A DNA stretch of 47,084 bases from a virus. Lineage: Duplodnaviria; Caudoviricetes. The translations under genes and the position numbers were made by a program. Location of the stretch: positions 1-47,084 of IMG/VR virus record IMGVR_UViG_3300032373_000021; one strand, written 5' to 3'. The notes below the pieces were generated by a model. It had not been told where the DNA came from. It did not search any database and saw only the letters and a program-made list of their open reading frames with translations. Of this stretch, positions 17,173-47,084 are shown in pieces. Numbering within the stretch: position 1 is the first letter of the stretch; each line of letters starts with the position of its first letter.

Positions 17173-17695
17173 CTTCGGCTCTATCGTCGCGACCGTTATC
17201 CGGTAAGTAGCATAGCACTTGACCGACGTTAGTAATTGCCCCGGACTCAGTAGCTATTTCGTGTCTGGTGCTCCACCCGCGGCTTTTGCCTTTACGGTCC
17301 AAATAGTAGCGGACCATAGCGCCGTCGTTTTTGTTGATACCGTTTAGTACTTTGCTCTCTGCAACGTCTAACTGGTTTTCGCTGCCTAATATTTGAGCCG
17401 TTTTGAGGCGTACAGATTTGGAAATCGCGCGCGAGAGTGTTTCCCGGGCGATCCCGATTTTGCCAGCCGCAGCTAACACGATTCCCCCGCACGACCGTAT
17501 GGCACCGTCCCGCTGCGCTTCTTTCAACGGCTTGTCAGTCTGCAGATAGGTTTTCAATAAGATCGGCTTGATACCAGCAGACCGAGCCGCTTTGTCTGGA
17601 TTGCCACCAAAGGCCACAAGCTCGTCGTCCAATATCTCACGCAGGTTTTCTGGTAGGTCCGCGACACTCTGCGGCCATTTCTGCTTGTCGGTCAT
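17162..17695 (-). CDS. Probable terminase small subunit
   Basis: HTH-like segments; YLDRKGKSRGW and LPDNGRD C-terminus; overlaps the terL start. Confidence 0.75.
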   Translation of the reverse strand: MTDKQKWPQSVADLPENLREILDDELVAFGGNPDKAARSAGIKPILLKTYLQTDKPLKEAQRDGAIRSCGGIVLAAAGKIGIARETLSRAISKSVRLKTAQILGSENQLDVAESKVLNGINKNDGAMVRYYLDRKGKSRGWSTRHEIATESGAITNVGQVLCYLPDNGRDDRAEDGD

Positions 17696-18623
17696 TCGAA
17701 ACTCTCTGTTCTGCCGGTACCAATTTCATCCCGTAATTGTTGACTTCTGGGCCATTCATCATCCCTTTCTTGCGGATAAGCGGCTGTTTGAAGCCCAAAT
17801 AATCTACATGGTGATGAACCCGGCCATACTTGCGAACAACTCTGGAAACATCGGGATGCACTCTGGCCTGCATTAATGACTTTGCGATCGTGCCGGTGTC
17901 GGCATAGATCGCGCCTTTTTTCACGCTTCCTTCTTTGTGGTAAAATTCTTCGGTATTGCCACCCTTGAGCTTCTGGGTGCCAAGCTTGCCTTGCAGGAAG
18001 GCGTTAAACTGTATAGTGCACCACCCGGCCTTGAGCATATCGAGACTTAGTATCGTGTCCTCGTTGTATCGGCCCCGCCACCGAAACGGCAGGTCGTTCC
18101 TGATAAAATTGCAAGAGTAGATACGGGTGTTGGTGACATAGGGCGGCATTTTTATCCGGTCGGGTGCGAACATTGAATAGTTCGGGCCAGCCATTGCCAC
18201 ATTTTCATAGCGTAAACAGAAATCTTCCATTGCCCGCCAGAACGATGCGGTTTTGAGCACTATCCGTTTGTTTCGGTTGAGCCGCCTGAACTTCCGAATG
18301 TTATCGTCGAGAACCCAGTGCCACGCATGCCCGTTCTGGACTGAGTGATCCCAAGCAAAGTTTCTTGCCGGACCTGGTCCTGTGCTTTTTGTTAAGCCGT
18401 GTTCGTCGCAGAGTTCATATTGGCTCTTATAGCCCATATCCAAGACAAACACCGTAGCCAGCAGGCCGTGAGCCGTAACCGCCGCCCCGTATTGCTCGGC
18501 CTCATCCGGCTCGACTATGATGTGATGCCTAACGCCGATCTTGGTCAGCGCTTTGCTGGTCATCATGTATTCGCTTCGGCCTTTTGAAACGATATACAGC
18601 GGGAACTGAGGCTGGCTACTCAT
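17637..18623 (-). CDS. GT-A fold glycosyltransferase, TET-associated/GREB1-like phage family
   Basis: PLYIVSKGR, GPARNFAWD, HWVLDDNI, IYSC and WRGRYNEDT motifs. Confidence 0.75.
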   Translation of the reverse strand: MSSQPQFPLYIVSKGRSEYMMTSKALTKIGVRHHIIVEPDEAEQYGAAVTAHGLLATVFVLDMGYKSQYELCDEHGLTKSTGPGPARNFAWDHSVQNGHAWHWVLDDNIRKFRRLNRNKRIVLKTASFWRAMEDFCLRYENVAMAGPNYSMFAPDRIKMPPYVTNTRIYSCNFIRNDLPFRWRGRYNEDTILSLDMLKAGWCTIQFNAFLQGKLGTQKLKGGNTEEFYHKEGSVKKGAIYADTGTIAKSLMQARVHPDVSRVVRKYGRVHHHVDYLGFKQPLIRKKGMMNGPEVNNYGMKLVPAEQRVSNDRQAEMAAECRGPTRKPA

Positions 18624-25959: not shown

Positions 25960-27186
25960 TCATGCCGCGCCCTCAAAATCGAAAAGGGGCCCTGCGTCGG
26001 CAGTGGATTTTTGAACCCCTTGAGCCTGGCACAAATTATTTCTGAGCCTCGCTGCTGCTATCTCAGCGTACTCAGGGTTAAGCTCAATCAGGATGGATGT
26101 GCGGCCAAGGTTCTTTGCGGCCAGCGCTGTGGTGCCCGCCCCGCCGAACGGGTCTAAAACGGTGCCACCAGATGGGCAACCTGCGGCGATACAGCGCCGC
26201 GCCAGTTCTTCGGGGAATGTGGCGAAGTGTGCGCCCTTAAACGACTGGGTAGGTATCTCCCAAACTTCAAATCTTGCTGGCTCATAATTTTTCAGGTGGC
26301 GACCATTTTCTTGCTGTTCTTTACGGTCCATTTGGTCCCAACGGTCGTTAAATCCAGCATGGCGGCGGCCGTGGCCGCGTTGTTTATCTTTCTTGGGACC
26401 ACCCACAGCTTTCATGTTGCCATTAGTTTTATCCCCGGCATGCGCGCGGTCACTACCATTCTGATTTTCAATGTCCTGTTTCCACCTCGCTATGCTGCTC
26501 GGCGCCGCTGAACGCCTAACAGTTGTTGGGTCATATGCGTACCGCGCGGACTTGGTGAACAAATATATTTTTTCATGTGCTGTAGCGGGGCGGTCTTTGA
26601 TGCTTTCAGGCATAGGGTTCGGCTTGGCCCAGATGATTTCAGACCGCACCCACCAACCCCACTCTTGCATGGCAATAGCAAAGCGATTAGGCACCATGCA
26701 CAGGTCTTTCGGCTTCATATAGCCACCAGCGCGAATCCGGCCCTGCGGCTTACTATAATGGTCGCCAACCCTAGGCCGCTCGACATTCCGTTGACGGTTG
26801 CGGTTTGCGCCGACACTGTTGCTATCGTCATAGACTGGGCCAACTGTGCTGAATGGCTTGTCACGAAAGGTGCGATCATCACCACCCGCCGCCTTGGTAT
26901 CTACCGCGCTTCGCCCATTAGGGCTGGTGGCATAACAGTCACCATAGTTCACCCAACAGGTGCCAGTGGGTTTCAATACCCGCCAAACCTCGGCAAACAC
27001 GCCAACCATCACGTCAAGATGTTCACCAAGTGTTGGTTCAAGGCCTAGTTGCCCATCAACACCGTAATCGCGCAGGCCCCAATAGGGCGGGCTGGTTACA
27101 ACACAATCAATGCTGCCGTCCGCTATCAAGGCAAGCTGTTCGCGCACGTCACCAACCATGATTGTGGTATCAATGGCATTGCTCAC
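25960..27186 (-). CDS. DNA methyltransferase, N4/N6 (beta class)
   Basis: VTSPPYWG catalytic motif before HFATFP and VLDPFGGAGTT (SAM binding). Confidence 0.95.
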   Translation of the reverse strand: MSNAIDTTIMVGDVREQLALIADGSIDCVVTSPPYWGLRDYGVDGQLGLEPTLGEHLDVMVGVFAEVWRVLKPTGTCWVNYGDCYATSPNGRSAVDTKAAGGDDRTFRDKPFSTVGPVYDDSNSVGANRNRQRNVERPRVGDHYSKPQGRIRAGGYMKPKDLCMVPNRFAIAMQEWGWWVRSEIIWAKPNPMPESIKDRPATAHEKIYLFTKSARYAYDPTTVRRSAAPSSIARWKQDIENQNGSDRAHAGDKTNGNMKAVGGPKKDKQRGHGRRHAGFNDRWDQMDRKEQQENGRHLKNYEPARFEVWEIPTQSFKGAHFATFPEELARRCIAAGCPSGGTVLDPFGGAGTTALAAKNLGRTSILIELNPEYAEIAAARLRNNLCQAQGVQKSTADAGPLFDFEGAA

Positions 27187-27509
27187 GCCGCCACCCTCTT
27201 TTCAATGAACTCTTCACGGTAAACCTCAAGCCCCATGTTCATAATCTCAAATCTAAGGGCGCGCTCGGTGATGCGGCGCTTCTTGGCCTCAGCCTTAAAG
27301 TCGAAGTCGGGTCTGGTCCTAAAGCCGGAACCAATGATAGACTTTATGCCGTTTCTACCCTTGAGCTCGATATGCAGCCGGTGAGCTTTGCCCACTACCG
27401 CGTCCTTACTGAAACCAAGAGCTTTTCCGATGCGGATTGATGAACAGCCGTCGTCAGCCATAAGGCGCAAGGTGGCTATTTTTTCTTTTGTCCAAGGGGA
27501 TTCGTTCAT
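27183..27509 (-). CDS. GcrA-family protein (N-domain)
   Basis: WTKEKIATLRLMADDGCSSIRIGKALGFSKDAVVGKAHRL matches the GcrA N-terminal HTH. Confidence 0.85.
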   Translation of the reverse strand: MNESPWTKEKIATLRLMADDGCSSIRIGKALGFSKDAVVGKAHRLHIELKGRNGIKSIIGSGFRTRPDFDFKAEAKKRRITERALRFEIMNMGLEVYREEFIEKRVAA

Positions 27510-28030
27510 GATGCCCTCTTTGCCAGTAAGGCGTGCTTGGCCCAATCGGGTTCAATTTCTAAGGTATAAGCCGTATAGTCGAGGATGCCGAAAGCGTCGG
27601 CTTCATCCTGATTTCGGGGTTCGATGCCTCGAGCGACGCACTCGTCCATAGTTCTTCGTTGCGCTAATTCACGCTTTAGGTTCCCACTGCCTATGAAATG
27701 CCTACGCCAATCTCGGACAACTGCTTCAGTGCAATAAATGTCTCTTTTCGTGCATAGATATTCAATGAAACCAGCTAGCGACATTAGTTTGCGCGCGGTG
27801 TTCTGATTGGTTTTTGCTCCCACCCAAGGAACTTCAAACGCTGCGATGTTTATCTTGTGCATGATGCACATATCGTCAAACCAACGTTCAAACTTGGCGA
27901 GGAACAAGCCGATGTCTTCGCCAGTATTTGGGAGTGTATTTCTCCCCAACAACGGCGGTGAACCGGGCACCCAAACAGCGAACCCGGTTTTTAACGAGGC
28001 CTGGTCTAATATGAGCAAGCGCTTTGTCAT
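27506..28030 (-). CDS. RuvC-like Holliday junction resolvase
   Basis: LILD...TGFA, AFE, WRRHFIG and DEADAFGI catalytic motifs. Confidence 0.8.
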   Translation of the reverse strand: MTKRLLILDQASLKTGFAVWVPGSPPLLGRNTLPNTGEDIGLFLAKFERWFDDMCIMHKINIAAFEVPWVGAKTNQNTARKLMSLAGFIEYLCTKRDIYCTEAVVRDWRRHFIGSGNLKRELAQRRTMDECVARGIEPRNQDEADAFGILDYTAYTLEIEPDWAKHALLAKRAS

Positions 28031-28031
28031 G

Positions 28032-28421
28032 CTATGCGGCCTTAGCGAGTGCGGGCTGCTCGTTAAGCACTGCCTGCCCTAGTGGCAGTGCAGCAAGGCC
28101 ACCCAAGGCATGGCGAACCTGATCGAAACTTTCTTTGTGATCGTCGTTGAGCTTTGTACGAATATCCAAGACTTTGTTTGAAAGTCGGCGCTCACGGATA
28201 ACGGCTGCCAAAACAGACTTTGTTACACCGCAACGATCGCAAGCCTCTTCTTTTACGTCATTCATGTCCTGACGCTTAGGGGCACAGGATCCTTTGGCCT
28301 CGTCCATAGTATTGTCAATATCACCTTGGATGTTATCGATGCGATCCAGATAGACTTTCAATTTTTCGCCGTCGTAGCCGTTGTGGCCTGGCTTCGGCGT
28401 TTGACTTAGTTTCTTTGCCAT
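28032..28421 (-). CDS. GapR/DUF2312-like DNA-binding protein
   Basis: KLKVYLDRIDNI...DMNDVKEEA...GVTKSVLAAVIRER...LPLG pattern. Confidence 0.65.
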   Translation of the reverse strand: MAKKLSQTPKPGHNGYDGEKLKVYLDRIDNIQGDIDNTMDEAKGSCAPKRQDMNDVKEEACDRCGVTKSVLAAVIRERRLSNKVLDIRTKLNDDHKESFDQVRHALGGLAALPLGQAVLNEQPALAKAA

Positions 28422-28450
28422 TGTCGGTTTCCTTTCAGGTTTGTCGGTGG

Positions 28451-28957
28451 TTACTCTGCGGCTGCCATTGGCCGCTTCTCGTTGTTGAGTTCGTTTTCGA
28501 TGTCCGCCTTCAATTGCTCCAAGACCGTGATGGCCTCAGAAACTTCTTTGTGGATTTGAGAGTTCTCTTGACGCGTGCGCCCTGCCCCGTTCGGTGAGTC
28601 GGGCTTGCTGGCTTTTGCATAAGCGCCGCCAATATCTCCGACCTCCTTCATCACCATGGAAAGGCGAATATCGATGCCAACAGAGCTTCGGTTTGAACTT
28701 CCCATTGCGGCGATGTGACTGCGGGTTTCGCTTTTAAGAGCGGCGGCAAGGATGGTGAAGCCGTGATCGGTATAAAGAGCGGCATCAATGCGAGCAGCGT
28801 CTTTCACGCTTACCTGCGTGGGATGGAACGGGTTCATGGCCTTTTCAAAAGCCCATCTGGTTTTTCCGGTGACCGCTTCAAGCCTGTCAGGATTGAGCGC
28901 GTTGACCGCTTGCTGTAGCGCTGCTTCGACTGATCCCGGTTCCCGCCTATATGTCAT
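28451..28957 (-). CDS. CII-like regulatory protein
   Basis: Position directly after cro; helical with KEVGD motif. Confidence 0.6.
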   Translation of the reverse strand: MTYRREPGSVEAALQQAVNALNPDRLEAVTGKTRWAFEKAMNPFHPTQVSVKDAARIDAALYTDHGFTILAAALKSETRSHIAAMGSSNRSSVGIDIRLSMVMKEVGDIGGAYAKASKPDSPNGAGRTRQENSQIHKEVSEAITVLEQLKADIENELNNEKRPMAAAE

Positions 28958-29130
28958 TCCGTTTCAACTCCCCTGTATCGGACTGGTGTTTCTTGAGCTT
29001 TTGGCCCAGCTTCCTATGTGTCGGTGCGACTTACTGCCCCGTTAGTCGTTGGTTCCTTGGGCCGGGCCCGCTGTTGGCTACTCCATACTCAGCGAGCCCG
29101 GTTTCCGTCCCCTTGCGAGAGGAGAACGAA

Positions 29131-29358
29131 TTAGGCGGCTTCCGAAAGTTTGTTGTCCGAAAAAGAGCAAGTATAATCTTGTGGAATAATTGCCTCCAAC
29201 TTCCGGAGGGTTTCAGATGTTGGGTTCCAACTTTCCTTGCCTAAATTTCGTAGCGTCGTGTCATTCATCTTTGCCAAGGATGCCAATTGAGACTTGCTAA
29301 GATTATTGTCGCGAGCGAATTGGCAAACGCGCTGGATGGACCTATCGATCAGTGCCAT
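29131..29358 (-). CDS. Cro-like XRE HTH protein
   Basis: LSKSQLASLAKMNDTTLRN...WNPTSETLRKLE; GAGG RBS; divergent from the repressor. Confidence 0.85.
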   Translation of the reverse strand: MALIDRSIQRVCQFARDNNLSKSQLASLAKMNDTTLRNLGKESWNPTSETLRKLEAIIPQDYTCSFSDNKLSEAA

Positions 29359-29384
29359 AGCTGGTTCCTCTATCATTTGGGCGC

Positions 29385-29413
29385 AGTGTAATCGCATTAT
29401 GATGCGTTTGCAA
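29385..29413 (-). promoter_or_regulatory. pR-like early promoter driving cro
   Basis: TTGCAA-17 bp-TACACT on the minus strand, with an operator in the spacer. Confidence 0.75.
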
Positions 29414-29450
29414 TATTTTTCGCATTACTATGCGTTCGCATTATTGTGCG
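29393..29450. promoter_or_regulatory. OR-like operator cluster: three CGCAT-N4-ATGCG sites
   Basis: 29393-29406 and 29421-29434 are perfect; 29437-29450 has one mismatch. Confidence 0.85.
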
Positions 29451-29502
29451 GTTGATGTTACGCAACGGTATTCGCTTTGGAGATGATTTTAGGGTCTGGC
29501 CT

Positions 29503-30054
29503 ATGACTGGTTCTTCTGAACAGCTTAGAAATAAACTATTAGACATCATGGCCAAGCATGACATGAAGCAGTCTGTATGGGCTAGAAACTCGGGAATAGC
29601 CGAAGGGACGCTAAGAAATTTTCTAAAAGGGCTTAGCCAAACACTTACTTATGACGTTCTGATAAAGTTGGCAAAAGGCGCAAATTTGAGTATTAATGAT
29701 CTCCTTGGAGATACCAAAGCCCCGCATTCAGAACCCAGCCCTTCAGTACGCTTGAATGAAGGTATAACAGCCCAAATTATTCTACCGCGAGAATATCGAG
29801 AAAGCGGAAAGCCACTAATAGATGCTTTAATCACCGCCAAAATCGGAAATAGCCACGAACGCTTATTCAGAATTAGCCGGGTTGGAGAATTGTTGGTGCT
29901 TTACCCAACCGATTATAAGGGCAACACCGAAGCAGCTATTCCTTACCTTCCAGATGCCGAATGGGACACTGGCACGCTAGAAATGGAAGGGAAAAAACAC
30001 ACCTGCCGCATAACGGGTGTCGTTCGCTCTTTAACAATCCCACACAGCTTGTAG
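29503..30054 (+). CDS. CI-like phage repressor (XRE HTH; C-domain without an obvious S24 catalytic motif)
   Basis: MKQSVWARNSGIAEGTLRNFLKG...TLTYDVLIKLA HTH; divergent from cro; exact start uncertain (29446 or 29503). Confidence 0.8.
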   Translation: MTGSSEQLRNKLLDIMAKHDMKQSVWARNSGIAEGTLRNFLKGLSQTLTYDVLIKLAKGANLSINDLLGDTKAPHSEPSPSVRLNEGITAQIILPREYRESGKPLIDALITAKIGNSHERLFRISRVGELLVLYPTDYKGNTEAAIPYLPDAEWDTGTLEMEGKKHTCRITGVVRSLTIPHSL

Positions 30055-30299
30055 GAATTGGTGCCATTACTTCCTGTGAACTTGTCAGCAGATCGTTACC
30101 ATTTCCGACACGCCGAGCCAAATCGCTCGACATATTTGCGTTTTCCATATCAACCCCAATCGAATGAACATTTGTTTCATCAAATTAGGTCAACCAGCCT
30201 GAACACTGTCCAGCTAAATAGTGGTTTTGTTTCTTTTCAGATACATTTATCAAAAAGAATGTATCCTTTGAAGATACATTCTAAGTTGTATCCCCCGAA

Positions 30300-30521
30300 T
30301 CAGTGCAAGCCTTTTTGATAATCTTTATCTTCATTTTCAAAATCATCTTTGATGAGAAGCATCCCTTGGCATAAGCGCAAATGGTCCACCATTTTGTCGT
30401 AACCCAGGCCCTCAAAAAACTGCACGCATTCTTCGATCATATCGAAACCAATTTTTTCGTCCTTATCCAGATGTTCAGGGCTTTCATATGCAGGCTTATT
30501 TTCGAAAGGATTGCCCATCAT
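30300..30521 (-). CDS. Small acidic protein translationally coupled to luxI
   Basis: ATGA overlap with the luxI stop; 73 aa. Confidence 0.7.
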   Translation of the reverse strand: MMGNPFENKPAYESPEHLDKDEKIGFDMIEECVQFFEGLGYDKMVDHLRLCQGMLLIKDDFENEDKDYQKGLH

Positions 30522-31165
30522 TCTGCCGCCATTAACTTGAGACTTTGATTTTCATATATATCAAAACTTCTGTTTACTGGTCGGCGCATATTCAATCGCT
30601 CGGTAATTTGGCGCAACTGCTGCTGGAATGACGGACGGTAATGGCAGACTTGCGCATCATCTTTGCCAAACTTTTCAACGGGACGCCAAACATGCGGCAT
30701 TCCAAAAAACTCATTAGAATTATGGGTAATGCGCGGCTCTTGCACCATGACAATTTCGTCAACGCCGTAAAGGATGCAGAATTCACAGAGTGTACAAAAC
30801 ATATCAGCGCTGATCAGTTCAAAATGATCCCGACTTTGCACTAGCTTTTTATCGATGGAAAAGCGCGATAGCTCCCAAACGTTTTCGGCGTGAGGGATAT
30901 AGCCTTTCGCCAGATCTGGAAATGTATCAGCCAACATATAAGGCCCGGTCGTTCGCAGCAGCCTAGATGTACCTATCACAGAGCCTTGCTGCTCATAGAG
31001 AATATAAACGGTATCATCCGTATCATACTCGTCATATTCAAGGCCGTCGCGGCTGTTAACATCCCAACCGAGTTCATCATGAAAAATTTCATGCCTAACC
31101 CTGTACATTGTCTTTCGAATTTCAGGGAAATTATTAAGTTCCGCCCCAGTCGCTAAAAATGCCAT
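30518..31165 (-). CDS. luxI: Acyl-homoserine-lactone synthase (LuxI family)
   Basis: Signature residues present: R-x3-F-x5-W (RHEIFHDELGW), LEYDEYD, SRLL, PYML, WELSRF; GAGGGGG RBS. Confidence 0.93.
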   Translation of the reverse strand: MAFLATGAELNNFPEIRKTMYRVRHEIFHDELGWDVNSRDGLEYDEYDTDDTVYILYEQQGSVIGTSRLLRTTGPYMLADTFPDLAKGYIPHAENVWELSRFSIDKKLVQSRDHFELISADMFCTLCEFCILYGVDEIVMVQEPRITHNSNEFFGMPHVWRPVEKFGKDDAQVCHYRPSFQQQLRQITERLNMRRPVNRSFDIYENQSLKLMAAE

Positions 31166-31220
31166 GCCTGCCCCCTCATAAATGAAAGGGCCAACGTGCT
31201 ATACTAAAACAGTCTGGGGA

Positions 31221-31238
31221 AACCCCCAAAAGGGGGAA
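31221..31238. promoter_or_regulatory. Candidate lux-box upstream of luxI
   Basis: CCCCC-AAAA-GGGGG palindrome (31223-31236) upstream of a TAGTAT/TATAGC -10-like element, with no clear -35. Confidence 0.5.
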
Positions 31239-31247
31239 TGTTTGTAG

Positions 31248-31979
31248 TCAATAAAATATGTGCCCGTCCCGCACAGCAATCATACAAGCTTCTGTGGCGT
31301 TTTGCGCGCCAAGCTTTATCCGCACGCTCTCGAGCCGTGATTTAATGCATTCAGGGGAAACGTTCAGCAAAGCGGCGGTGCCCTTGATGCGCTTACCGTG
31401 TGCAATCCCAATCAAAGTTTCACACTCGGCGTTTGTAAGTCGAACAGTATCCAGTGCGCCCGCTGCTATTTGCTCGGAAAAACGCTGACATTCCACCGCA
31501 ATGTGAATTAAAGCCGCCGAGAATTTATACGACACTTCGTTCGCTAGGTTTTCATTTGAGGTTAGAAAAGAAAGGCACCCAAATTTACCAAAAGCCCCTT
31601 TTACGGGAAGAAGCATTCCATCCCTGACATCGAAGTCGGCAGCAAGCGACATAACCGCGTGCCCTGCCCCGGTTAACTTTCTACGATTAATTACGGTATT
31701 CCATGCCAGAGCCTTTTCGCCAGTTAGCGCGGCCTCGGCAAAAATTGGATCACAGAAAAACAGCTCACGCCTATTATATTCCTCCGCCCATTCTGGCGGC
31801 CGTGTATCAATCACCAGATAATCTTTTTCAACCCCGTACCACCAGATCATTCGATCAAATCCCAGATATGACTTAAGGGACTCTAATAAACTTTGGAATT
31901 TTGCAACGCTTTTGCAGTTCGCAGATTCGACAACAAAATTTGTCATTAAGTCGATAGCTTCTGTATTCCACGTTTTCAT
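31248..31979 (-). CDS. luxR: LuxR-family AHL receptor / transcriptional regulator
   Basis: Autoinducer-binding residues W-x3-Y-x8-DP (EWAEEYNRRELFFCDP), W (LAWN) and G (RDG); C-terminal LuxR HTH LTNAECETL...G...KLG. Confidence 0.92.
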   Translation of the reverse strand: MKTWNTEAIDLMTNFVVESANCKSVAKFQSLLESLKSYLGFDRMIWWYGVEKDYLVIDTRPPEWAEEYNRRELFFCDPIFAEAALTGEKALAWNTVINRRKLTGAGHAVMSLAADFDVRDGMLLPVKGAFGKFGCLSFLTSNENLANEVSYKFSAALIHIAVECQRFSEQIAAGALDTVRLTNAECETLIGIAHGKRIKGTAALLNVSPECIKSRLESVRIKLGAQNATEACMIAVRDGHIFY

Positions 31980-32008
31980 AGGATCGTTTCGCTTCTGTTC
32001 CTATTAGT

Positions 32009-32027
32009 TGTAAATGAGAGCTTTACA
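32009..32027. promoter_or_regulatory. Inverted repeat in the luxR/xre divergent promoter region
   Basis: TGTAAA-N7-TTTACA. Confidence 0.4.
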
Positions 32028-32082
32028 CACTTATTAATAAACCACTAGTGTTTAAAACTATAGCACCTGGGGGTGGAGACAG

Positions 32083-32442
32083 TTGTTGAACGAGTTAGAG
32101 TTGAACTGCCAAGTCGGCGAACGCATAGCGTTTGTGCGTAAGCGGCTGGATATATCACGCGAAGAATTGGCGGAAAGAATTGGATGCGGCTATCAACAAG
32201 CCGGTAAGATTGAGCGCGGACAAAGTAGCTTAACAATATTCCAATTTTTAGGCGTCTGTGATGCGCTCGCTATACCGCCAAACGCATTGCTTCATGAGTT
32301 ATGCCAAGCGAAATCTCAAGACTTCCAGAACACAATCATATCATTACTAATGAGCGAGTTATCACCCGTAGAAGAACTTCATATAAAGAAAGTTGCTAGG
32401 GTCTTGTCAGACATTGCCTCTGGTAAAGCTGAACAAATCTAA
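32083..32442 (+). CDS. XRE-family HTH regulator divergent from luxR
   Basis: VGERIAFVRKRLDISREELAERIG...KIERG; GGAG RBS with TTG start. Confidence 0.88.
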   Translation: MLNELELNCQVGERIAFVRKRLDISREELAERIGCGYQQAGKIERGQSSLTIFQFLGVCDALAIPPNALLHELCQAKSQDFQNTIISLLMSELSPVEELHIKKVARVLSDIASGKAEQI

Positions 32443-32445
32443 TAG

Positions 32446-33237
32446 CTACTCCGCACTCAAAATCGTTGCTCTGCACCCTTCATTGCTCACCACGGCCACC
32501 GCGGCGCCAACCGTATAGCCACCAAAGCCATTTTTAGCACGGTACTTCATGGTTAAGCTGTGCGTGCCTTCAGGTGAAACGGGCGTAATTCTGGTCTCAA
32601 TGTGTTCAAAACTGCCCGGGTCTTTCAGCCTGTCCTTGATATAATTTTCAACGCCTCGGTGCGAACCATCCCACGCACTCAAACAATGAAAACCCTTGCG
32701 CTTTTTATTGGCGGCTTCTCTGCCCTCTTCCTCGGCTTTCAAGCGCTTCAATTCTACAACCGCCGCATCTCTCTTCGTTTCATAGTAGGATACTTTTTTT
32801 GTAAATCTCTCATCGCCGGGGGAGAGTTCAACAAGCTTTTTATATGCCAAAATATTCCCGACAAAATCGCTGGCCGGGATTTTTGCCGCTTCAGCCATTA
32901 AAACCTCAACTTCAGCCAGCCGTTCTTGCTCACGCTCACGTGTAATTTCCTCAAGCCGCGAAGGATCAAAAGCCTCCAGATATTCGAGGTACAAACTATT
33001 GCCGATGCCAGGGCCAAAAAACACAACGACCAAAATCCCGGCAACCCACAGCCACCGCCTTCGGGCTGCTTTTTTGTGTAGTTTCACATCTAAAGCAAGC
33101 TGATCTCTTTTATTTTGTCTGGTCCGGGCAATTTCTTCGGCCCAGCCCTCTGCAAACGGCTCGCCGCACTTGGGGCAAACCGTTGCCCGAGCCGATGTTT
33201 CATTTGCGCACGTCGGACAGCGCTCCAAATTAGCCAT
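32446..33237 (-). CDS. Zinc-ribbon membrane protein (immunity-region accessory gene)
   Basis: CPTC...CPKCG, a TM helix, and a C-terminal LKDPGSF...YRAKNGFGG domain; GAGGGG RBS before ATG 33237. Confidence 0.8.
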   Translation of the reverse strand: MANLERCPTCANETSARATVCPKCGEPFAEGWAEEIARTRQNKRDQLALDVKLHKKAARRRWLWVAGILVVVFFGPGIGNSLYLEYLEAFDPSRLEEITREREQERLAEVEVLMAEAAKIPASDFVGNILAYKKLVELSPGDERFTKKVSYYETKRDAAVVELKRLKAEEEGREAANKKRKGFHCLSAWDGSHRGVENYIKDRLKDPGSFEHIETRITPVSPEGTHSLTMKYRAKNGFGGYTVGAAVAVVSNEGCRATILSAE

Positions 33238-33316
33238 AAGTTCCCCCTCACGTTGCCTAGCAAATAGGCCCGGAAACGCGTGGAAAGTCAATCTGTGGCC
33301 TAATTTGGTAAATATT

Positions 33317-33368
33317 CGCATTATTATGCGTTTTTATTATTGACTAATTCGCATTTAGATGCGATATT
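33317..33368 (+). promoter_or_regulatory. pL/OL-like promoter with two CGCAT-N4-ATGCG operators
   Basis: Operators at 33317-33330 and 33350-33363; TTGACT(33340)-17 bp-GATATT(33363). Confidence 0.85.
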
Positions 33369-33482
33369 ACACTCATAGCAACGGCCAAGCGGGCTTTTTA
33401 CCAACTACAGGTTCAAACGCTCAACGGTTCGTCAGCTACCGCAAAAGCCCGATACAGCCAACAGGCACACAGAGCAGCGGTT

Positions 33483-33809
33483 TTGAAACGAAATGGGGTA
33501 CGGCACATGAACGCAGCATTACAGAACGCAATAGTTAAAGCGGAACTTGCAAGGAATACAGCCCGCCGCCGCCACGCGGATCGCCTTTCTCACACCATTA
33601 CTGATCTGGACTTGAAGGGCTGGTTTATGGCGACACACCCTAACGGCAATATTCCAACTGATCCTTGCGAACGCATAGAATTGCTTTTGCCCATTCGCGA
33701 CTATTTCGCTTCGTCTCACAACAACCTTGTTTTTCAAAAAGTGGAGGCCGCGATTTGCCGCGAGTTGAAGCGCGAAGAAGAACTTAACAGCGCTCGGGAG
33801 GCGGCGTAA
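33483..33809 (+). CDS. Hypothetical early protein
   Basis: First ORF after pL; ends REAA, which contains the next RBS. Confidence 0.65.
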   Translation: MKRNGVRHMNAALQNAIVKAELARNTARRRHADRLSHTITDLDLKGWFMATHPNGNIPTDPCERIELLLPIRDYFASSHNNLVFQKVEAAICRELKREEELNSAREAA

Positions 33810-34852: not shown

Positions 34853-35321
34853 CACACTCAGGTCGCTCGTTTTGGTCGTAGGACATAGGCAAGAAATTAC
34901 TGATGAGGAAGTTTTGTCTGATGCGATTGATTTCATAACCCGGACAAAGGACTTTCTGTCGATGGAGGGGTATCGGCGATGTGATATTCCTGCGTGCAAT
35001 TGTCCGTACTGGCACGGAGGGCACGCATCTACACGACTTAGAGAAGTGAGCGACCTCATTCACGAAGAATGGATGTGGAAAGGGACGATCATTTCATCCC
35101 TTGAAGATATGGCAAAGGCTGCCAATAAACGTCCGACTGAAATGTACGAGGATGGAACCGCATTCTTGAATAGTATCGAGTGGGACGAAAATGGGCCTAC
35201 ATTTCATTCAGACCCTGGCTGCATTCAGTGCACAAGCGGCGCGACCCCAAATATTTATAACACGGGGCCATGTCCATATCACAGATTTGACGCCGCCCTC
35301 AAGAAAGCGAGGGGCGGGTGA
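34827..35321 (+). CDS. Cys-rich hypothetical protein
   Basis: GYRRCDIPACNCPYWHGG motif and CIQC...CPYH. Confidence 0.65.
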   Translation: MEAPMSQIDTLRSLVLVVGHRQEITDEEVLSDAIDFITRTKDFLSMEGYRRCDIPACNCPYWHGGHASTRLREVSDLIHEEWMWKGTIISSLEDMAKAANKRPTEMYEDGTAFLNSIEWDENGPTFHSDPGCIQCTSGATPNIYNTGPCPYHRFDAALKKARGG

Positions 35322-36715
35322 TGTCAAATCAGTTAATGGCCAGCCTCGATATTTACGACGTCGTCGAACAGTACGAGGCGAAAAAAGAAACCATTCCCAC
35401 GCTGTTCGAGGAAATAAAAGGGCAGTGCAACAAACTGTCTTCCATGTGTTCCACCATGGGCGCTTATGGCGGCAGCCCTTTCAGGCATGAATTTAGGCAC
35501 AATTACGTGGAAGACATGCTGGCAACGCTAAAAAAGTCTTCTTGGCGCTTCGTTTACCAGAAATTGAACATTAAACATATCGCGCCGCAAACGCACCTCA
35601 AGCACTTTGAGGGCTTGTTAGAAAAACCGCCGGAATTCGATGTTGAAAACATTCGTGGTGTCTTCAAGGAGTATGTGACCGACCCACGCTCGATGTCACT
35701 TCAGGCATTTGCAGAAATTTTCTGTCGGTTGGATAAATTCTACAAAAGCCACGACAACATGAAAGTCGGCGTCAAAGGTTTGCCGAAGCGTATCATTATA
35801 GCCAACTGCGGCGGCTTCTACCATCACGGCGCATCACAGCTGGCAGATGTGATCAATTGCCTCATGCGGTATCGCGGCCAGTACGATCTTTGCGTTACTG
35901 AGTACATGGCCAAGGACATATTCGAGGGGAAAAGTGCCCTTGAAGTATTTAGGAGCAGCACACCAGTAAAGAAACACGAAAAGCTTAACGCACTTTCGCT
36001 CGAAACTGAGCCGCACACATATCAGGGTCTAAAGTTCAAAGCCTATATGAACGGCAATTGTCATGTCATTTTTGACAAGCGCGCCCTTGGCGACATCAAC
36101 CGCGCCCTCGCTGAATACTATGGTGAAATCCTACCCGATGCTTATGAACACACAGACAAGAAAGCTGAAAGCACAGCGGTTTCCAAAGACCTACAGTTTT
36201 ATGGCACACCTCAAAAAGCTGCCAACTACATTATTGATGAAATCTCTTTCCACGATGGCGATGAATTCCTAGAGCCATCATGCGGCAAGGGTGCCTTGAT
36301 GGATGCCATCCGCCGACATATAGCGGGCAAGTATTATCATTCAAGCAACCGACCGGCTGTCTCCATTACAGGCGTTGAGGTTCATGCACAAAGAGCACAG
36401 GAAACGCGCGACAAAGGCTTTTCCGTCATTTGTGCAAACTTCCTTTCTTGGCAAACCGATAGGCGTTTTGACAAGGTGGCGATGAACCCGCCTTTCTACG
36501 GGAAACATTACGCCAAGCATGTAGCAAAAGCCTATTCGCTCTTGAAGCCAGGAGGGGCCCTGTACGCAATCCTTCCGATCACAGCGAGAGACGGCCACGG
36601 CATTATTGACGAGACTTACGATAGCGTTAGATGGCGCGACCTTCCTGTCGGTTCCTTCCATGAAAGCGGCACCAATATCAACACAGTGTTGGCTACGATT
36701 TGGAAGGGCGAGTGA
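35318..36715 (+). CDS. DNA adenine methyltransferase with DUF4942-like N-domain
   Basis: QFYGTP, FLEPSCGKG, MNPPF and SFHESGT motifs. Confidence 0.88.
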   Translation: MMSNQLMASLDIYDVVEQYEAKKETIPTLFEEIKGQCNKLSSMCSTMGAYGGSPFRHEFRHNYVEDMLATLKKSSWRFVYQKLNIKHIAPQTHLKHFEGLLEKPPEFDVENIRGVFKEYVTDPRSMSLQAFAEIFCRLDKFYKSHDNMKVGVKGLPKRIIIANCGGFYHHGASQLADVINCLMRYRGQYDLCVTEYMAKDIFEGKSALEVFRSSTPVKKHEKLNALSLETEPHTYQGLKFKAYMNGNCHVIFDKRALGDINRALAEYYGEILPDAYEHTDKKAESTAVSKDLQFYGTPQKAANYIIDEISFHDGDEFLEPSCGKGALMDAIRRHIAGKYYHSSNRPAVSITGVEVHAQRAQETRDKGFSVICANFLSWQTDRRFDKVAMNPPFYGKHYAKHVAKAYSLLKPGGALYAILPITARDGHGIIDETYDSVRWRDLPVGSFHESGTNINTVLATIWKGE

Positions 36716-39446: not shown

Positions 39447-39752
39447 ATGAGAAATGACCCAGACCCCATAGATATCCACGTAGGAGGCCGTGTACGCAAC
39501 CGCAGAAAGCAAAGAAGCATGTCTCAGACAACGCTTGGCAAAATACTGGGGATCACGTTCCAGCAGGTCCAGAAATATGAGCGAGGGACCAACCGAATAG
39601 GGTCCAGCCGCATGTTCAGGATATCCGAAGCGCTTGAAGTGGAGGTGGGCTATTTCTTTGAAGGCCTACAGCCCCCTGCCGAGCCTTTGAAGATCAAACA
39701 AGCCATCAAGAAACTCGCTAATCAGATAGGCGACCTAGCGGAAGCGCTCTGA
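39447..39752 (+). CDS. XRE-family HTH protein
   Basis: DPIDIHVGGRVRNRR...ITFQQVQKYERGTNRI, a common alphaproteobacterial XRE family. Confidence 0.92.
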   Translation: MRNDPDPIDIHVGGRVRNRRKQRSMSQTTLGKILGITFQQVQKYERGTNRIGSSRMFRISEALEVEVGYFFEGLQPPAEPLKIKQAIKKLANQIGDLAEAL

Positions 39753-41065: not shown

Positions 41066-41536
41066 ATGGCTAAATTGTCCTCGACCGCAACTAAGGGACC
41101 GGAAGACTTTAACCTAATCACTGACAAGCTGATTGCTGAAGCGCGCAGATATGAGAACGGCTCAGTGTGCGTCAGTGATATTAAACCGGGGTGGTACGAA
41201 CATGCGGACAGGAAGCCATTTAAGCGCAAAGGTGTGTGGTGTGTTCATAACTATGGACCTACGCCGCTGCTTAGCTATGAACGCAACACCTTTGGCGATA
41301 TTCGGTTCCGTGTACGGAGTTACGATTATACTGCCACATCTATTTTGATTGAGAATGACGGCGGCAATTGTCCTAAGTGGTTCAAAGAGCCGGTACACCG
41401 GCTATGCGCGCCGCTCTTTATGAAAAATAGCCTTCGCCGCTGGACTGATATTATTAGCTACCTTGTTGAAGCCAGATACGAAACCGACCTCCCAGAACAA
41501 TATCGCGAGAGAAAAACGGAGGCATGCTGTGCCTAG
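41066..41536 (+). CDS. Hypothetical phage protein
   Basis: AGGAG RBS; 156 aa. Confidence 0.7.
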   Translation: MAKLSSTATKGPEDFNLITDKLIAEARRYENGSVCVSDIKPGWYEHADRKPFKRKGVWCVHNYGPTPLLSYERNTFGDIRFRVRSYDYTATSILIENDGGNCPKWFKEPVHRLCAPLFMKNSLRRWTDIISYLVEARYETDLPEQYRERKTEACCA

Positions 41537-43457
41537 ATCGTCCAAAGATGGCGAAATCATCATTGATAGCTTCGCAGGCGGCGGCGGGGCATCGGTCGGC
41601 ATTGAAATGGCGCTTGGGCGCTCGCCCGATGTGGCAATCAATCACGACAAAACAGCCATCGCTATGCATGAAGTTAATCACCCCACAACCGAACACATCT
41701 GTCAGAACATTTGGCAGGCAATCCCCAAAGACGTTGCTCGCGGCCGCCCTGTGGGTTTTGCGTGGTTTTCGCCCGACTGCAAACATTTCAGCAAAGCCAA
41801 AGGCAGCGCCCCGGTAAAGCGCAACATTCGTGATCTTGCTTGGATTGTGGTGATGTGGGCAGAGCAAGTGAGGCCGCGCGTGATTGTGGTTGAAAATGTT
41901 GAAGAGTTCAAAGGCTGGGGCCCAGTAGGTGAAGGCGGCATTCCCTGCAAGCTTCGTAAGGGTGAAACTTTTGATGAGTGGGTGAAGTCGCTGCGGCGCG
42001 CAGGCTACAAGGTAGAATGGAAGGAATTGCGCGCATCAGATTACGGCGCCCCAACCATCCGCAAACGCCTATTTGTGATTGCTCGCTGTGACGGTCAGCC
42101 CATCGTATGGCCTAAGCCGACACACTATAACCCAAAAAAGAAGTTCATACGCAGGAAGGGCTTAAAGCCGTGGCGCGCAGTCGCCGAAGTGCTGGATTGG
42201 TCTTTGCCTTGCCCCTCGATCTTTATGACCACCGCAGAGGCCAAAGACTGGCGGCAAGCCACCGGGCAGAGCGTTAAGCGGCCATTGGCAGATGCCACGA
42301 TGCGCAGGATCGCCCAGGGCATTAAGCGTTTCGTGATCGATGCTGAGGAACCTTTTATCGTAACAGCCAATCACCAAAGCAATAGCTTCAGGGGCCAAGG
42401 CTTAACCGAGCCAATGAAAACCATCACGGCAGCGCGTGACGCCCAGGGCTTGGTAACACCGTTTCTGACCGAGCATGCAAATGCCAGCGGGCAACGCAAA
42501 TGGAGTGCAGAGGAACCGCTGCGAACCCAGTGTGCCAATGTCAAAGGTGGGCATTTTGCGCTCGTGTCACCAACCTTAGTCCAGACTGGATACGGTGAAC
42601 GACCAGCGGAATATAAATGTGGCGAATGTCATGAGATATTCAGCGACAAACATGCCACCGGCATTGGGACGCTAGCGCCCGCCGAGTGCCCGCACTGTGG
42701 CGAAGAAAGTAACATTTCGTTGGTCAGGGCTGGGCAGAAACCACGCGCCCCCGGCATCGAAAAGCCGTTAGGCACGATTGTAGCCGGTGGCGGCAAACAT
42801 GCGCTCGTTGCGGCCTTTATGGTCAAGCACTTCGGTGGGGTAGTGGGCACTACCCTCGACAACCCGGCACCAACCATTACGACCCGGGGCACACAAAACC
42901 AGATTGTTGCAGCAACCATTGAACGACAATTCGGGAAATCAGCCGGCAACGATGCCAATGAGCCTCTGGCTACAATAACCGCTGGCGGGGGTGGCAAGGC
43001 TGCATTGGTGGCTAGCAACCTGGTTAAGCTTCGTGGCACATGCAAGGACGGACAGCCAATTGACGAACCTGCACCAGGGCTAACCGCAGGCGGCAACCAT
43101 GTTGGCGAGGTGCGCGCGCTTTTGCACAAATATTATGGTGCCGAAACCGGTCAATCGCAAAGCTGTGCCGAGCCTATCCACACTATACCAACCAAAGAGC
43201 GCTTTGGCCTCGTTACCGTTGAAGGCCAATCCTATCAGATAACCGATATTGGCATGCGCATGCTGTCACCGCCCGAGCTTTTTGCCGCGCAAGGTTTCCC
43301 GCCAAGCTACATCATTGACCGCAAGCCAGACGGCAGCAGAATAACCAAAACCGCACAGGTTTCATGCGTCGGCAACAGCGTATCGCCGCCACTGTCCGAA
43401 GCCATCACCCGCGCCAACGTGCCCGAAATGGCGGCACTAAGGAGGGCAGCGGAATGA
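41529..43457 (+). CDS. DNA (cytosine-5) methyltransferase with repeated variable region
   Basis: DSFAGGGG, FSPDC, ENVEEF, TIRKRLF, GMRML and GNSVSP motifs. Confidence 0.95.
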   Translation: MPRSSKDGEIIIDSFAGGGGASVGIEMALGRSPDVAINHDKTAIAMHEVNHPTTEHICQNIWQAIPKDVARGRPVGFAWFSPDCKHFSKAKGSAPVKRNIRDLAWIVVMWAEQVRPRVIVVENVEEFKGWGPVGEGGIPCKLRKGETFDEWVKSLRRAGYKVEWKELRASDYGAPTIRKRLFVIARCDGQPIVWPKPTHYNPKKKFIRRKGLKPWRAVAEVLDWSLPCPSIFMTTAEAKDWRQATGQSVKRPLADATMRRIAQGIKRFVIDAEEPFIVTANHQSNSFRGQGLTEPMKTITAARDAQGLVTPFLTEHANASGQRKWSAEEPLRTQCANVKGGHFALVSPTLVQTGYGERPAEYKCGECHEIFSDKHATGIGTLAPAECPHCGEESNISLVRAGQKPRAPGIEKPLGTIVAGGGKHALVAAFMVKHFGGVVGTTLDNPAPTITTRGTQNQIVAATIERQFGKSAGNDANEPLATITAGGGGKAALVASNLVKLRGTCKDGQPIDEPAPGLTAGGNHVGEVRALLHKYYGAETGQSQSCAEPIHTIPTKERFGLVTVEGQSYQITDIGMRMLSPPELFAAQGFPPSYIIDRKPDGSRITKTAQVSCVGNSVSPPLSEAITRANVPEMAALRRAAE

Positions 43458-44242
43458 GCCGGTCCTCAGTTGTCACGGCTATTGCCGATCTGGTAAAGCG
43501 CCGCGCGCTGTTTGTCTGCAACCATTCTGGCGGCAAAGACAGTCAGGCGATGCTGATCAAATTGCGGACTATCGTACCCGCGTGGCAAATTGTAGTCATC
43601 CATGCCCACCTTCCGGGTGTGGAATGGAAGGGCACTTATGATCATGTAAGGCGATATTCAGAAGATTTGGACCGCATCAAATGCGTGGCCACTAAAACAT
43701 TTTTTGAAATGGTGGGACGGCGGGTCATGTTCCCATCGCCAAAGTACCGCCAATGTACTTCCGATCTTAAACGTGGCCCTATTGAACGCGAAATTAGGCG
43801 CTATCTCAACAGCAACCATGAATACGGTGGTTTGATTGTAAATTGCATGGGGCTAAGGGCGCAAGAGAGCACCAGCAGAGCGAAGGCAACACCATTTAAA
43901 TTCAATGACAGGAACAGTAAGGCGGGCCGTGAATGGTACGACTGGCTACCAATCTTTGAAATGAGTATCGAAGACGTATTTGCTTCAATTAAAGCTGCTG
44001 GGCAAGAACCTCATTGGGCCTATCAGGCTGGCATGACCCGGCTGTCTTGTTGCTTCTGCATTATGGCCAGCAAGGCTGACCTAACCACCGCCGCAAAACT
44101 TAATCCCGAACTTTACGCCCAAATGGTCGCGCTGGAAAAGCGCATTGACCAAACAATGATGATGCCGAGCAAGACGAAGGGTAAACAAACGCTGGAACAA
44201 ATTACTGGCATCAAAGCTGGGCCTGCGGAGCAAGCCGCATGA
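43454..44242 (+). CDS. PAPS reductase family protein (phage, Fe-S)
   Basis: HSGGKDS PP-loop, CTSDLK, GLRAQES..RA and RLSCCFC motifs. Confidence 0.9.
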   Translation: MSRSSVVTAIADLVKRRALFVCNHSGGKDSQAMLIKLRTIVPAWQIVVIHAHLPGVEWKGTYDHVRRYSEDLDRIKCVATKTFFEMVGRRVMFPSPKYRQCTSDLKRGPIEREIRRYLNSNHEYGGLIVNCMGLRAQESTSRAKATPFKFNDRNSKAGREWYDWLPIFEMSIEDVFASIKAAGQEPHWAYQAGMTRLSCCFCIMASKADLTTAAKLNPELYAQMVALEKRIDQTMMMPSKTKGKQTLEQITGIKAGPAEQAA

Positions 44243-44758: not shown

Positions 44759-45196
44759 ATGCCTAGAAACATGTCTTTCGCTCTAACAACGCCTCAATTC
44801 CTTGACGGCAGCAAGACAGAAACCCGGCGCACAGGCTGGCAGTTTCTGGAAGCTGGCGACAAGATCATGGCAGTTGAAAAGGGCATGGGAATACCGAAGG
44901 GCCAGAAGATAAGGCGCTTGGGCCCTTGCACCATTGTCAGCGTTCACCGCGAGTCTTTGAAAGACATCAAACCCGCAGATGTAATTGCTGAAGGCTTCCC
45001 GGATATGACGCCTGCACAGTTTATAAAATTCTTCTGTGACAGCCACAAAAACTGCACCCCACTCACGCCGGTAACGGTGATCCGATTCAAGCGTGACGAA
45101 CTGGTTCTTAGCGGCGGCACTAGCTCAGGCGCGCCTGACATTCGTCTGTATGGGGAAAGTGCCATTAAACGCCCCGCCTCAACAGGAGATAAATGA
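44759..45196 (+). CDS. ASCH-domain protein
   Basis: MSFALT...GSKTETRR.GW...EGF motif. Confidence 0.85.
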   Translation: MPRNMSFALTTPQFLDGSKTETRRTGWQFLEAGDKIMAVEKGMGIPKGQKIRRLGPCTIVSVHRESLKDIKPADVIAEGFPDMTPAQFIKFFCDSHKNCTPLTPVTVIRFKRDELVLSGGTSSGAPDIRLYGESAIKRPASTGDK

Positions 45197-45582
45197 TGTT
45201 TAATGGCCGTGAAATGAAGGCAATTAAAACGATGATTGGTGTGTCGGAAATTGCTGAAGAGGTTAAGCACCTACGCGTTGAAAATGAGTGGCTGAAGAAA
45301 CAGAACAAACAACTCATTGACGCACTTGCCAAATCAAGCCGGAGTGAAGCGATAGAGCGCATTAGAGAGGCTGCCCTTTATGCCGAAAAGCTAGGGGCAG
45401 GAATGTGGATCACCCCAAAAGGCATTCATCTTTCACTAAGAAGGGGCTTTCTGACTACGATGCGAGACGTGTCTTTCAAGGACATAGAGCATTGTTGTTT
45501 CAACCCCCTGAAGGACGAGATAATGAAGATGGAGCAGCAGTTTGACACCTCACCCCCCGCCCCAGCAGGAGAAGAAAATTGA
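45193..45582 (+). CDS. Hypothetical protein
   Basis: AGGAG RBS; coupled to the upstream gene. Confidence 0.6.
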   Translation: MMFNGREMKAIKTMIGVSEIAEEVKHLRVENEWLKKQNKQLIDALAKSSRSEAIERIREAALYAEKLGAGMWITPKGIHLSLRRGFLTTMRDVSFKDIEHCCFNPLKDEIMKMEQQFDTSPPAPAGEEN

Positions 45583-45754
45583 TGCATAGAATTGCTTTTA
45601 TTTTAATTTTCACGCCGTTCATTTGGAACTTGAAAGCTACCAGCCAGACGGGGTTAAAGCTGTATAAAATTGGGCCTCTTAGCGTAGGTATTTCATTTGA
45701 ATTAGAGCATTGCAACCACCGCAAATCTAATAGCGGTTTGAAGGGAAAATAACC

Positions 45755-45946
45755 ATGTCACGACGCGCGGCTGCCTTCTATCAGGACGATGTAAAGCGCG
45801 CTTGCGCGGGGGCGCGGGCGGCGGGCTTAACAGTGAGGGGGGTTGAAATTGATCCCAATGGGCGTATTCTCGTGCGCTGTGATGAAATTCCCAGTGAAGA
45901 AACTGCCGTAAAGGGCTGGAATGAAGCGACGAAAAATGTTGCCTAA
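45755..45946 (+). CDS. Putative excisionase / small protein upstream of integrase
   Basis: FYQDDVKRA...AAGL.V..VEIDPNGRI; overlaps the integrase start. Confidence 0.65.
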   Translation: MSRRAAAFYQDDVKRACAGARAAGLTVRGVEIDPNGRILVRCDEIPSEETAVKGWNEATKNVA

Positions 45947-46952: not shown

Positions 46953-46978
46953 AATAACTCTTTAAAATCAATAACTTA
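46917..46978. promoter_or_regulatory. att-arm region: inverted repeat plus IHF site
   Basis: TTGTCCAAC-N10-GTTGGACAA (46917-46944); AATCAA-TAAC-TTA (46966-46978) matches WATCAANNNNTTR. Confidence 0.6.
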
Positions 46979-46987
46979 AAAACAGGG

Positions 46988-47064
46988 TGGTGATCCCACG
47001 AGGACTCGAACCTCGAACCTGCTGCTTAGAAGGCAGCTGCTCTATCCAGTTGAGCTATGGGACC
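46988..47064 (-). tRNA. tRNA-Arg (anticodon TCT)
   Basis: Reverse complement GGTCCCATAGCTCAACTGGATAGAGCAGCTGCCTTCTAAGCAGCAGGTTCGAGGTTCGAGTCCTCGTGGGATCACCA; 77-nt cloverleaf with CCA end. Confidence 0.97.
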
Positions 47065-47084
47065 ATGGGTAATGCGTGCGCAAG

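Follow-up and report, generated by a model that had tools for sequence, protein, structure and literature searches.

A luxR-luxI cassette with a coupled small gene beside the cI-like repressor of a prophage, and its likely part in the lysis-lysogeny switch

The cassette and the immunity region of the window

The window considered here is the whole of the 47,084-nucleotide virus record IMGVR_UViG_3300032373_000021 (Duplodnaviria; Caudoviricetes; positions 1 to 47,084), and the subject of this account is a cassette of four genes within its immunity region that resembles a complete acyl-homoserine lactone (AHL) quorum-sensing (QS) system. An earlier note, made from the letters alone, had described intact luxR and luxI genes with family signature residues, a small open reading frame (ORF) coupled to luxI and a divergent XRE gene. 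All of these are borne out by the profile matches, residues and overlaps given here.

30300-30521, minus strand: small ORF of 73 aa, coupled to the luxI stop by a 4-base overlap
30518-31165, minus strand: luxI, predicted AHL synthase of 215 aa (PF00765, E 5e-31, 108 bits against a cut-off of 24)
31248-31979, minus strand: luxR, predicted AHL receptor of 243 aa (PF03472, E 5e-20, and GerE, PF00196, E 2e-5)
32083-32442, plus strand: XRE-family regulator, divergent from luxR (HTH_3, E 4e-8)

Both the autoinducer-binding domain (PF03472) and the C-terminal helix-turn-helix (HTH) domain (PF00196) of the window LuxR exceed the Pfam cut-off. Of the residues counted as family signatures, LuxI holds R24, F28, W34, E43, D45, D48, R68, E98 and R101, and LuxR holds W64, Y68, D77, P78, W93, G121, E185, L189 and G195. 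From these features the synthesis of an AHL by the window LuxI can be predicted. The LuxI proteins of the clade described below all end in Ala-Ala-Glu (window 30518-30526), and several phage proteins end in Ala-Ala; these ends are possibly protease degradation tags.

The placement of the cassette between a cI-like repressor and the leftward operators, also claimed in the earlier note, is upheld by the recovery of cI-, cro- and cII-like genes together with five operators.

28451-28957, minus strand: cII-like gene (PF06892, E 1e-4; phrog_101, E 1e-3)
29131-29397, minus strand: cro-like gene (phrog_8, E 4e-4), divergent from cI across three operators
29393-29450, no strand assigned: three OR-type (rightward) operators at 29393, 29421 and 29437, with the palindrome CGCAT-N4-ATGCG, between cro and cI
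29503-30054, plus strand: cI-like repressor (HTH_26, E 5e-7; PHROG repressor families)
30135-30218, minus strand: conserved island of non-coding DNA that separates the small ORF from the 3' end of cI
30256-30282, minus strand: terminator-like hairpin after the small ORF (consensus match only)
32446-33321, minus strand: zinc-ribbon protein with a hydrophobic stretch, one more gene between xre and OL
33317-33368, plus strand: two OL-type (leftward) operators at 33317 and 33350, around a promoter-like site at 33340-33368 (consensus match only)

When at most one mismatch is allowed, the operator palindrome is matched nine times across the window against a mean of 2.8 in shuffled sequence, and nine matches were reached in none of 100 shuffles. 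The start of cI at 29503 is inferred, the longest ORF beginning at 29446. A 70-codon antisense ORF over the 3' end of cI (29936-30148) was not counted as a gene, since it has no convincing family and diverges after its first codons from its counterpart in a related phage locus, L092, which is described below.

The record is linear with an estimated completeness of 61%, and luxI and luxR lie inside a prophage, as Pfam and PHROG profiles place terminase, portal, capsid, tail, DnaB, recombination and integrase genes in the same record. The integrase, near the right end of the window, adjoins a complete tRNA-Arg(TCT) at 46988-47064, for which the best match in Kordiimonadaceae genomes, the one family searched, was 95%. 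An alphaproteobacterial host is pointed to by a GcrA-like gene. Other genes of the window include a second XRE gene close to host-type regulators, this GcrA-like gene, a TET-associated glycosyltransferase, three DNA methyltransferases and a gene with a phosphoadenosine phosphosulfate (PAPS) reductase domain (39447-39752, 27183-27545, 17637-18623, 25960-27186, 35318-36715, 41463-43457 and 43364-44242).

Positions 28000-32665 of the window are covered without differences by one contig from each of two public sequencing runs, which may both be source data of the window record. Because the contigs of both runs cover this part identically, it is unlikely that cassette and switch were brought together by a chimeric assembly. 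In run X1 the contig depth, about 57-80 up to that point, drops to about 20 at 45170-45199; the integrase end (45170-47084) may thus vary within the population, the window showing one variant of several. Among the public runs listed as holding window sequence there was no RNA dataset.

Relatives of the cassette and the slot behind cI

The closest relatives of the cassette are found in Kordiimonadaceae. Five relatives of the window LuxI, at 48-58% identity, were recovered among 53 candidates, and their group together with the proteins of genome G100 and of L092 makes up a clade of eight of the 86 rows in a quick tree from which three rows were dropped (Shimodaira-Hasegawa-like approximate likelihood-ratio, SH-aLRT, support 99). 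Six LuxIs make up its sister group (SH-aLRT 98), and half of them are read as resident chromosomal loci of Kordiimonadaceae; two of these three adjoin the same mre/rod and msrA-like genes. Four Roseobacter-group LuxIs, whose genomic context is unknown, are placed far from the clade. Members are rare, for beyond E 1e-60 only the seed genome was found among 401 class-level genomes, and two of the 45 genomes of the Kordiimonadaceae set hold one. The GenBank phage collection contains four records with weak luxI matches (30-42% identity over less than 70% of the query). Viral contigs were also scanned with four queries (the window luxI, P0008, a LuxR alignment and a small-ORF alignment) and gave no match; because such scans work from a few peptide patterns, and L092 too escaped them, they are no evidence of absence.

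Genomic context could be read for four members of the clade (the window, L092, L083 and L004), the remaining four proteins, P0002-P0005, having come without context. At all four loci xre is divergent from a run of luxR, luxI and small ORF, and the small ORF and the divergent xre thus travel together. Identity to the window across L092, L083 and L004 is 45-47% for LuxI, 28-32% for LuxR, 23-30% for XRE and 23-27% for the small ORF. Three of the four loci (window, L092, L083) are phage, in keeping with the phage context claimed in the earlier note and not with cassettes found only outside phages, and in all three the luxR-luxI-small ORF run points towards a cI-like gene and meets it at the 3' end. 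L092 is a second lambdoid phage, with a terminase type different from that of the window, in which the cassette lies between an S24-intact cI and the leftward early genes. L083, in genome G100, reads in the order tRNA-Cys, integrase, excisionase-like gene, xre, then luxR, an extra ORF, luxI and small ORF; a cI-like gene then converges on this run, and beyond it lie Rep_trans, an ATPase of the FtsK type and a P2 capsid protein of the PM2 type (P2_C above cut-off). From the P2 capsid, the FtsK-type ATPase, Rep_trans and the integrase at tRNA-Cys, L083 is classed as a non-tailed PM2-like prophage. This double-jelly-roll prophage (L083 6555-20000 and L089 1-5600, on G100:C6) is integrated at tRNA-Cys and has a podovirus-like prophage, L088, as its immediate neighbour. 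The fourth locus, L004, is a contig of a Kordiimonas metagenome-assembled genome (MAG), with the cassette between genes for a purine nucleoside phosphorylase and an aldehyde dehydrogenase.

Lux genes of other kinds were also met. Between the tail genes and an Ant antirepressor gene of one provirus (L002 5607-7176) lie luxR, luxI and a 60-aa ORF, with a LuxI outside the clade, and a complete provirus (L003 9881-11315) has a luxI-like gene and a converging luxR beside its integrase. An xre/luxR-luxI-small ORF layout is chromosomal in a soil alphaproteobacterial MAG (L005 8354-10874), its LuxI and small ORF being unrelated to those of the window.

The small ORF defines a four-member family. Its homologs stand at the same position in L083 and L092 (z scores 6.3 and 7.4; 0 of 300 shuffles), and the link to L004 is weak (z 2.5, with 6 of 300 shuffles as good). 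A profile search returned six hits, namely the three inputs, one true new member (P0013) and two long proteins. The window ORF has no Pfam, PHROG or NCBIfam hit, found only itself in a 5.8-billion search, and had atlas hits below 0.8. Its predicted structure is a two-helix hairpin (helices 20-39 and 42-55) with a core predicted local distance difference test (pLDDT) score above 90, and the model has no fold match in the PDB at E<=0.001. The window protein is acidic (18 D/E against 8 K/R), and its homologs are not. A different small-ORF family (70-77 aa) occurs just after the resident luxI of several Kordiimonadaceae genomes (L082, L056, L060, L061), and L004 carries both types in tandem, the resident type at 3432-3641 and the phage type; homology between the two is rejected for now.

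Use of the window cI as query extended the comparison beyond the LuxI clade. Two of the 45 Kordiimonadaceae genomes were matched, and both have lux genes converging on cI. These loci, and a third found by profile, carry a second type of cassette in the same slot, in which luxR, a long luxI and a second luxR converge on a relative of the window cI.

L124 (G100:C6, 5462-8595): tailed prophage of genome G100, with luxR-luxI-luxR, all above the Pfam cut-off
L125 (G031:C1, 4439-7705): Mu-like, genome G031, with luxR, a gene resembling luxI and a second, weakly matching luxR
L128 (G169:C196): putative phage locus, where the slot behind cI is filled by luxI-like and luxR-like genes

The luxI-like gene of L125 has no Pfam hit, and R24, F28, D45, D48, R68, E98 and R101 are aligned in it. 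The C-terminal part of the window cI is common to the L083 repressor as well, and a profile of four repressors gave seven matches in five of the 401 genomes: three inputs, two partial matches without lux genes in flanks of 1.5 kb, and two new near-full-length matches, one of which (L128) has lux genes in the slot. Neither the small ORF nor the divergent xre was detected beside luxR in L124 or L125 by tblastn with the window proteins. Lux genes are thus placed behind the repressor at six loci in four phage types and are aimed at the end of cI in all six, so that the synteny next to cI, on which the earlier note had also turned, recurs in unrelated phages. One genome, G100, holds a resident luxRI together with two prophage cassettes of different type.

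The DNA next to the cassette suggests that it is exchanged. The non-coding island of 84 bp (30135-30218) is 87% identical to L092 (5257-5340; E 1e-22). It contains a near-palindrome and, after that, a long G-U-rich hairpin formed by the luxI strand, which is antisense to cI. On that strand its folding z scores are -1.6 in the window and -2.8 in L092; on the other strand they are 0.3 and -0.8. It has no Rfam match, no exact 20-mer match in any other viral contig and no match in a GenBank phage, and a single weak 33-bp match was obtained among 201 genomes. On the far side of the cassette, 1.1 kb (32437-33484) is 81% identical to L092 and includes the zinc-ribbon gene, whose proteins are 85% identical; inside the cassette only a short stretch of luxI is alike. 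Both runs that hold the window contain L092-matching variant letters at 30171-30187, and in one run a contig joins 30218 to 32437 with unrecognised DNA between. From these observations it is likely that the window phage and the L092 phage co-occur with different cassette alleles; the records of the window and of L092 may both derive from these very runs, which give no independent support. In run X1 one contig aligns with the window on either side of the entire stretch from cro through cI to the cassette (window 29142-33364) and has unrecognised DNA in between; it possibly belongs to a third phage of this kind whose immunity region differs.

A possible route from signal to switch

Lux genes behind the repressor at six loci in four phage types are the main reason to think that the cassette feeds the switch, and we consider it probable that it affects the lysis-lysogeny decision in some manner. 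The run of xre, excisionase-like gene and integrase on one strand in L083 is in line with this. The window cI has no Peptidase_S24 match at E<=0.1 (the L092 repressor is matched at E 1e-11), and without an S24 domain it likely needs a route of induction other than self-cleavage.

How the parts would be wired can be sketched with less assurance. Lysogens would make AHL from the phage luxI, and LuxR, once it has bound AHL, would turn on both luxI and the small gene, an autoinduction suggested by analogy with cinIS and mmaIP. The small protein would then bind and neutralise XRE, as CinS and MmaP do to PraR. With free XRE favouring induction, a step that we infer, dense lysogens would stay dormant, and the signal would favour lysogeny, as the Phaeobacter prophages and arbitrium discussed below suggest. 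XRE rather than CI is taken as the partner of the small protein because the small ORF and xre co-occur at all four clade loci, are both undetected in L124 and L125, and are both kept at L004 in the absence of any cI. A census by self-made AHL with this particular wiring and direction is the likeliest of the accounts weighed here, yet it is a tentative proposal, and we stop short of giving it even odds.

Several observations weigh against it. If the small protein were instead an antirepressor of CI, in the manner of Qtip or of the Aeromonas phage smORF (small ORF), LuxR with AHL, perhaps with XRE as co-activator, would cause it to be made, CI would be inactivated, and lysis would follow at high signal. 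In the Aeromonas phages, XRE and LuxR-AHL do activate a small ORF by which cI is inhibited, with no cleavage involved (PMC10432266). The missing S24 domain of the window cI and the acidity of its small protein are what such an account would lead one to expect, and similarity of the small ORF tracks that of the cI N-terminal domain (L083 and L092 share 52% and 35%), which fits an antirepressor equally well. Against an antirepressor stand the homologs that are not acidic, the small ORF retained at L004 where there is no cI, and its non-detection in L124, L125 and L128 despite the same cI type; moreover, lysis at a high self-made signal would presumably free the phage among immune lysogens, whereas the Aeromonas modules sense the AHL of the host. 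We consider this account rather unlikely. As for the census, the argument from a repressor without S24 does not extend to L092, whose cI is cleavable. The parallel with CinS is one of position, for no homology to CinS-like proteins was found (hhalign probability 1%, E 0.055; window ORF against the Rhizobium cinI-coupled ORF, z 0.1), the comparison set having been assigned by position and not from a named record.

LuxR might also act on the switch directly, for example through the 84-bp element facing the 3' end of cI as an antisense RNA or processing site, with the small protein and XRE only tuning feedback, the former perhaps as a LuxR anti-activator. The element is far better conserved than the surrounding genes (87% in DNA against 23-46% in protein) and folds on the luxI strand only, and the lux genes of all six phage-type loci point at cI. 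Yet blastn does not find the element in the PM2-like prophage, a terminator-like hairpin precedes it, only two copies are known, and it may simply be a recombination linker; we regard this route as improbable. The target promoter of LuxR is in turn hard to place: a weak inverted repeat lies upstream of luxI at each of the four clade loci, and no lux-box-like palindrome is common to them. This, together with the lack of any of the nine operator matches inside the cassette, tells against the census proposed above and agrees with the cassette as cargo. It would then be a host-derived QS unit in a known accessory slot, the one that rexAB occupies in lambda, and would change the behaviour of the host or hinder rival phages while leaving the phage's own switch alone. 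The sister relationship to partly resident LuxIs agrees with cargo too, as does L004, whose cassette is chromosomal, among housekeeping neighbours and with no phage gene in 5.2 kb, so that the module can persist without a switch. The cassette G+C of 0.45 is below the 0.51 of the window, but the same low value, 0.45, extends over the whole immunity region. Two different lux cassettes occupy the same slot in the same orientation across four phage types, and cargo would have no need to adjoin the repressor of a PM2-like or Mu-like genome; the cargo reading is about as improbable as direct action of LuxR. The recurrence on which the census proposal rests is drawn from small samples (4 and 3 loci), and the other new near-full-length cI match, L132, has neither luxI nor luxR within 1.5 kb.

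Returning to the AHL census, a wider picture may be drawn, again with somewhat less than an even chance of being right. Phages of Kordiimonadaceae-like marine alphaproteobacteria might have independently evolved an AHL plug-in for the classical cI switch, in the form of exchangeable cassettes (xre|luxR-luxI-small protein or luxR-luxI-second luxR) docked behind the repressor of lambdoid, podovirus-like, Mu-like and non-tailed PM2-like prophages. It would be the main control of induction for repressors that do not cleave themselves, would employ a new small helical-hairpin family, and would differ in signal allele between co-occurring phages.

Comparison with known quorum-sensing and phage communication systems

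In the arbitrium system of SPbeta-group phages a peptide signal is read by an RRNPP receptor in Bacillus hosts. The likeness to the proposed census is that the phage would make and sense its own signal to gauge lysogen density; no genes are in common.

The receptor-only phages are closer in gene content. ARM81ld and Apop of Aeromonas carry XRE-LuxR-smORF modules, and VP882 carries VqmA-Qtip (PMC10432266), so that a phage LuxR, an XRE and a small ORF in a phage that keeps cI are shared with the window. ARM81ld and Apop are plasmid-like phages that sense the AHL of the host, with an xre-luxR operon and a counter-oriented small ORF, whereas the window has a synthase as well, and its small ORF is co-oriented with luxR and downstream of luxI. 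That latter arrangement recalls two chromosomal systems, in which luxR is followed by luxI with a small gene directly behind it. CinS, co-transcribed behind cinI in Rhizobium leguminosarum, binds the XRE-family PraR (PMC4149787, PMC5977203), and MmaP, co-transcribed behind mmaI in Methylobacterium fujisawaense, binds PraR as well (PMC10790750). Even the 4-base overlap between luxI and the small gene recurs in the Rhizobium loci L011, L012 and L017. In both systems, however, the XRE-family target is encoded elsewhere and the output is biofilm or swarming.

The earlier note had thought a phage with both synthase and receptor rare or undescribed, and this does not stand. A synthase and a LuxR were reported in one coral virome phage (PMC11309003), and genes for both among sargassum viruses (PMC11295528). 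Above all, Phages A and B of Phaeobacter inhibens T5T make their own AHLs, and these signals keep the phages lysogenic by way of hth|xre-luxR-luxI modules, which take the place of cI/cro, an experimental precedent for control of lysis and lysogeny by self-made AHL (Bunsick et al., bioRxiv 10.64898/2026.07.02.736140, PMC13345283). That preprint finds luxI in 53 of 93 Roseobacter prophages and states that operons of the form xre-luxR-luxI are confined to the Roseobacter clade, while the legend of its Fig. S6 also mentions phage luxI genes outside such operons. Kordiimonas is named neither in its main text nor in its 8 supplementary files, and small ORFs or antirepressors go unmentioned in the main text. 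Our literature search, with most subscription journals outside its coverage, found no publication on the cassette layout of the window and no report of quorum sensing in PM2-like viruses.

As in the Roseobacter switch, prophage-borne luxI and luxR accompany an XRE gene in the switch region, modules are swapped as units between related phages, and a polylysogen (here G100) bears several QS systems. In contrast, xre, luxR and luxI form one operon there with a counter-oriented hth, and here xre lies on the strand opposite to luxR at four of four loci; the Roseobacter module replaces cI/cro, and the window keeps cI, cro, cII and five operators. The small ORF after luxI, to which the earlier note gave no role, is the main difference, beside the Kordiimonadaceae relatives and one non-tailed PM2-like carrier. 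The concept of self-made phage AHL signalling is thus already known, and what is new here is the retained cI/cro, the luxI-coupled small protein, the second cassette type in the same slot and the PM2-like carrier. Tests of such signalling have until now come from a single host, Phaeobacter, with a module in place of cI/cro. Judging from the window and its relatives, there may be another architecture as well, in a different family, in which the cassette supplements a cI switch that stays intact and which tailed and non-tailed phages have in common. The locus offers a small putative output protein without an assigned family, and G100 is a natural test system. Should the census reading be true, AHL census-taking would be a repeatedly recruited, portable part of phage decisions, and quorum sensing would reach PM2-like viruses.

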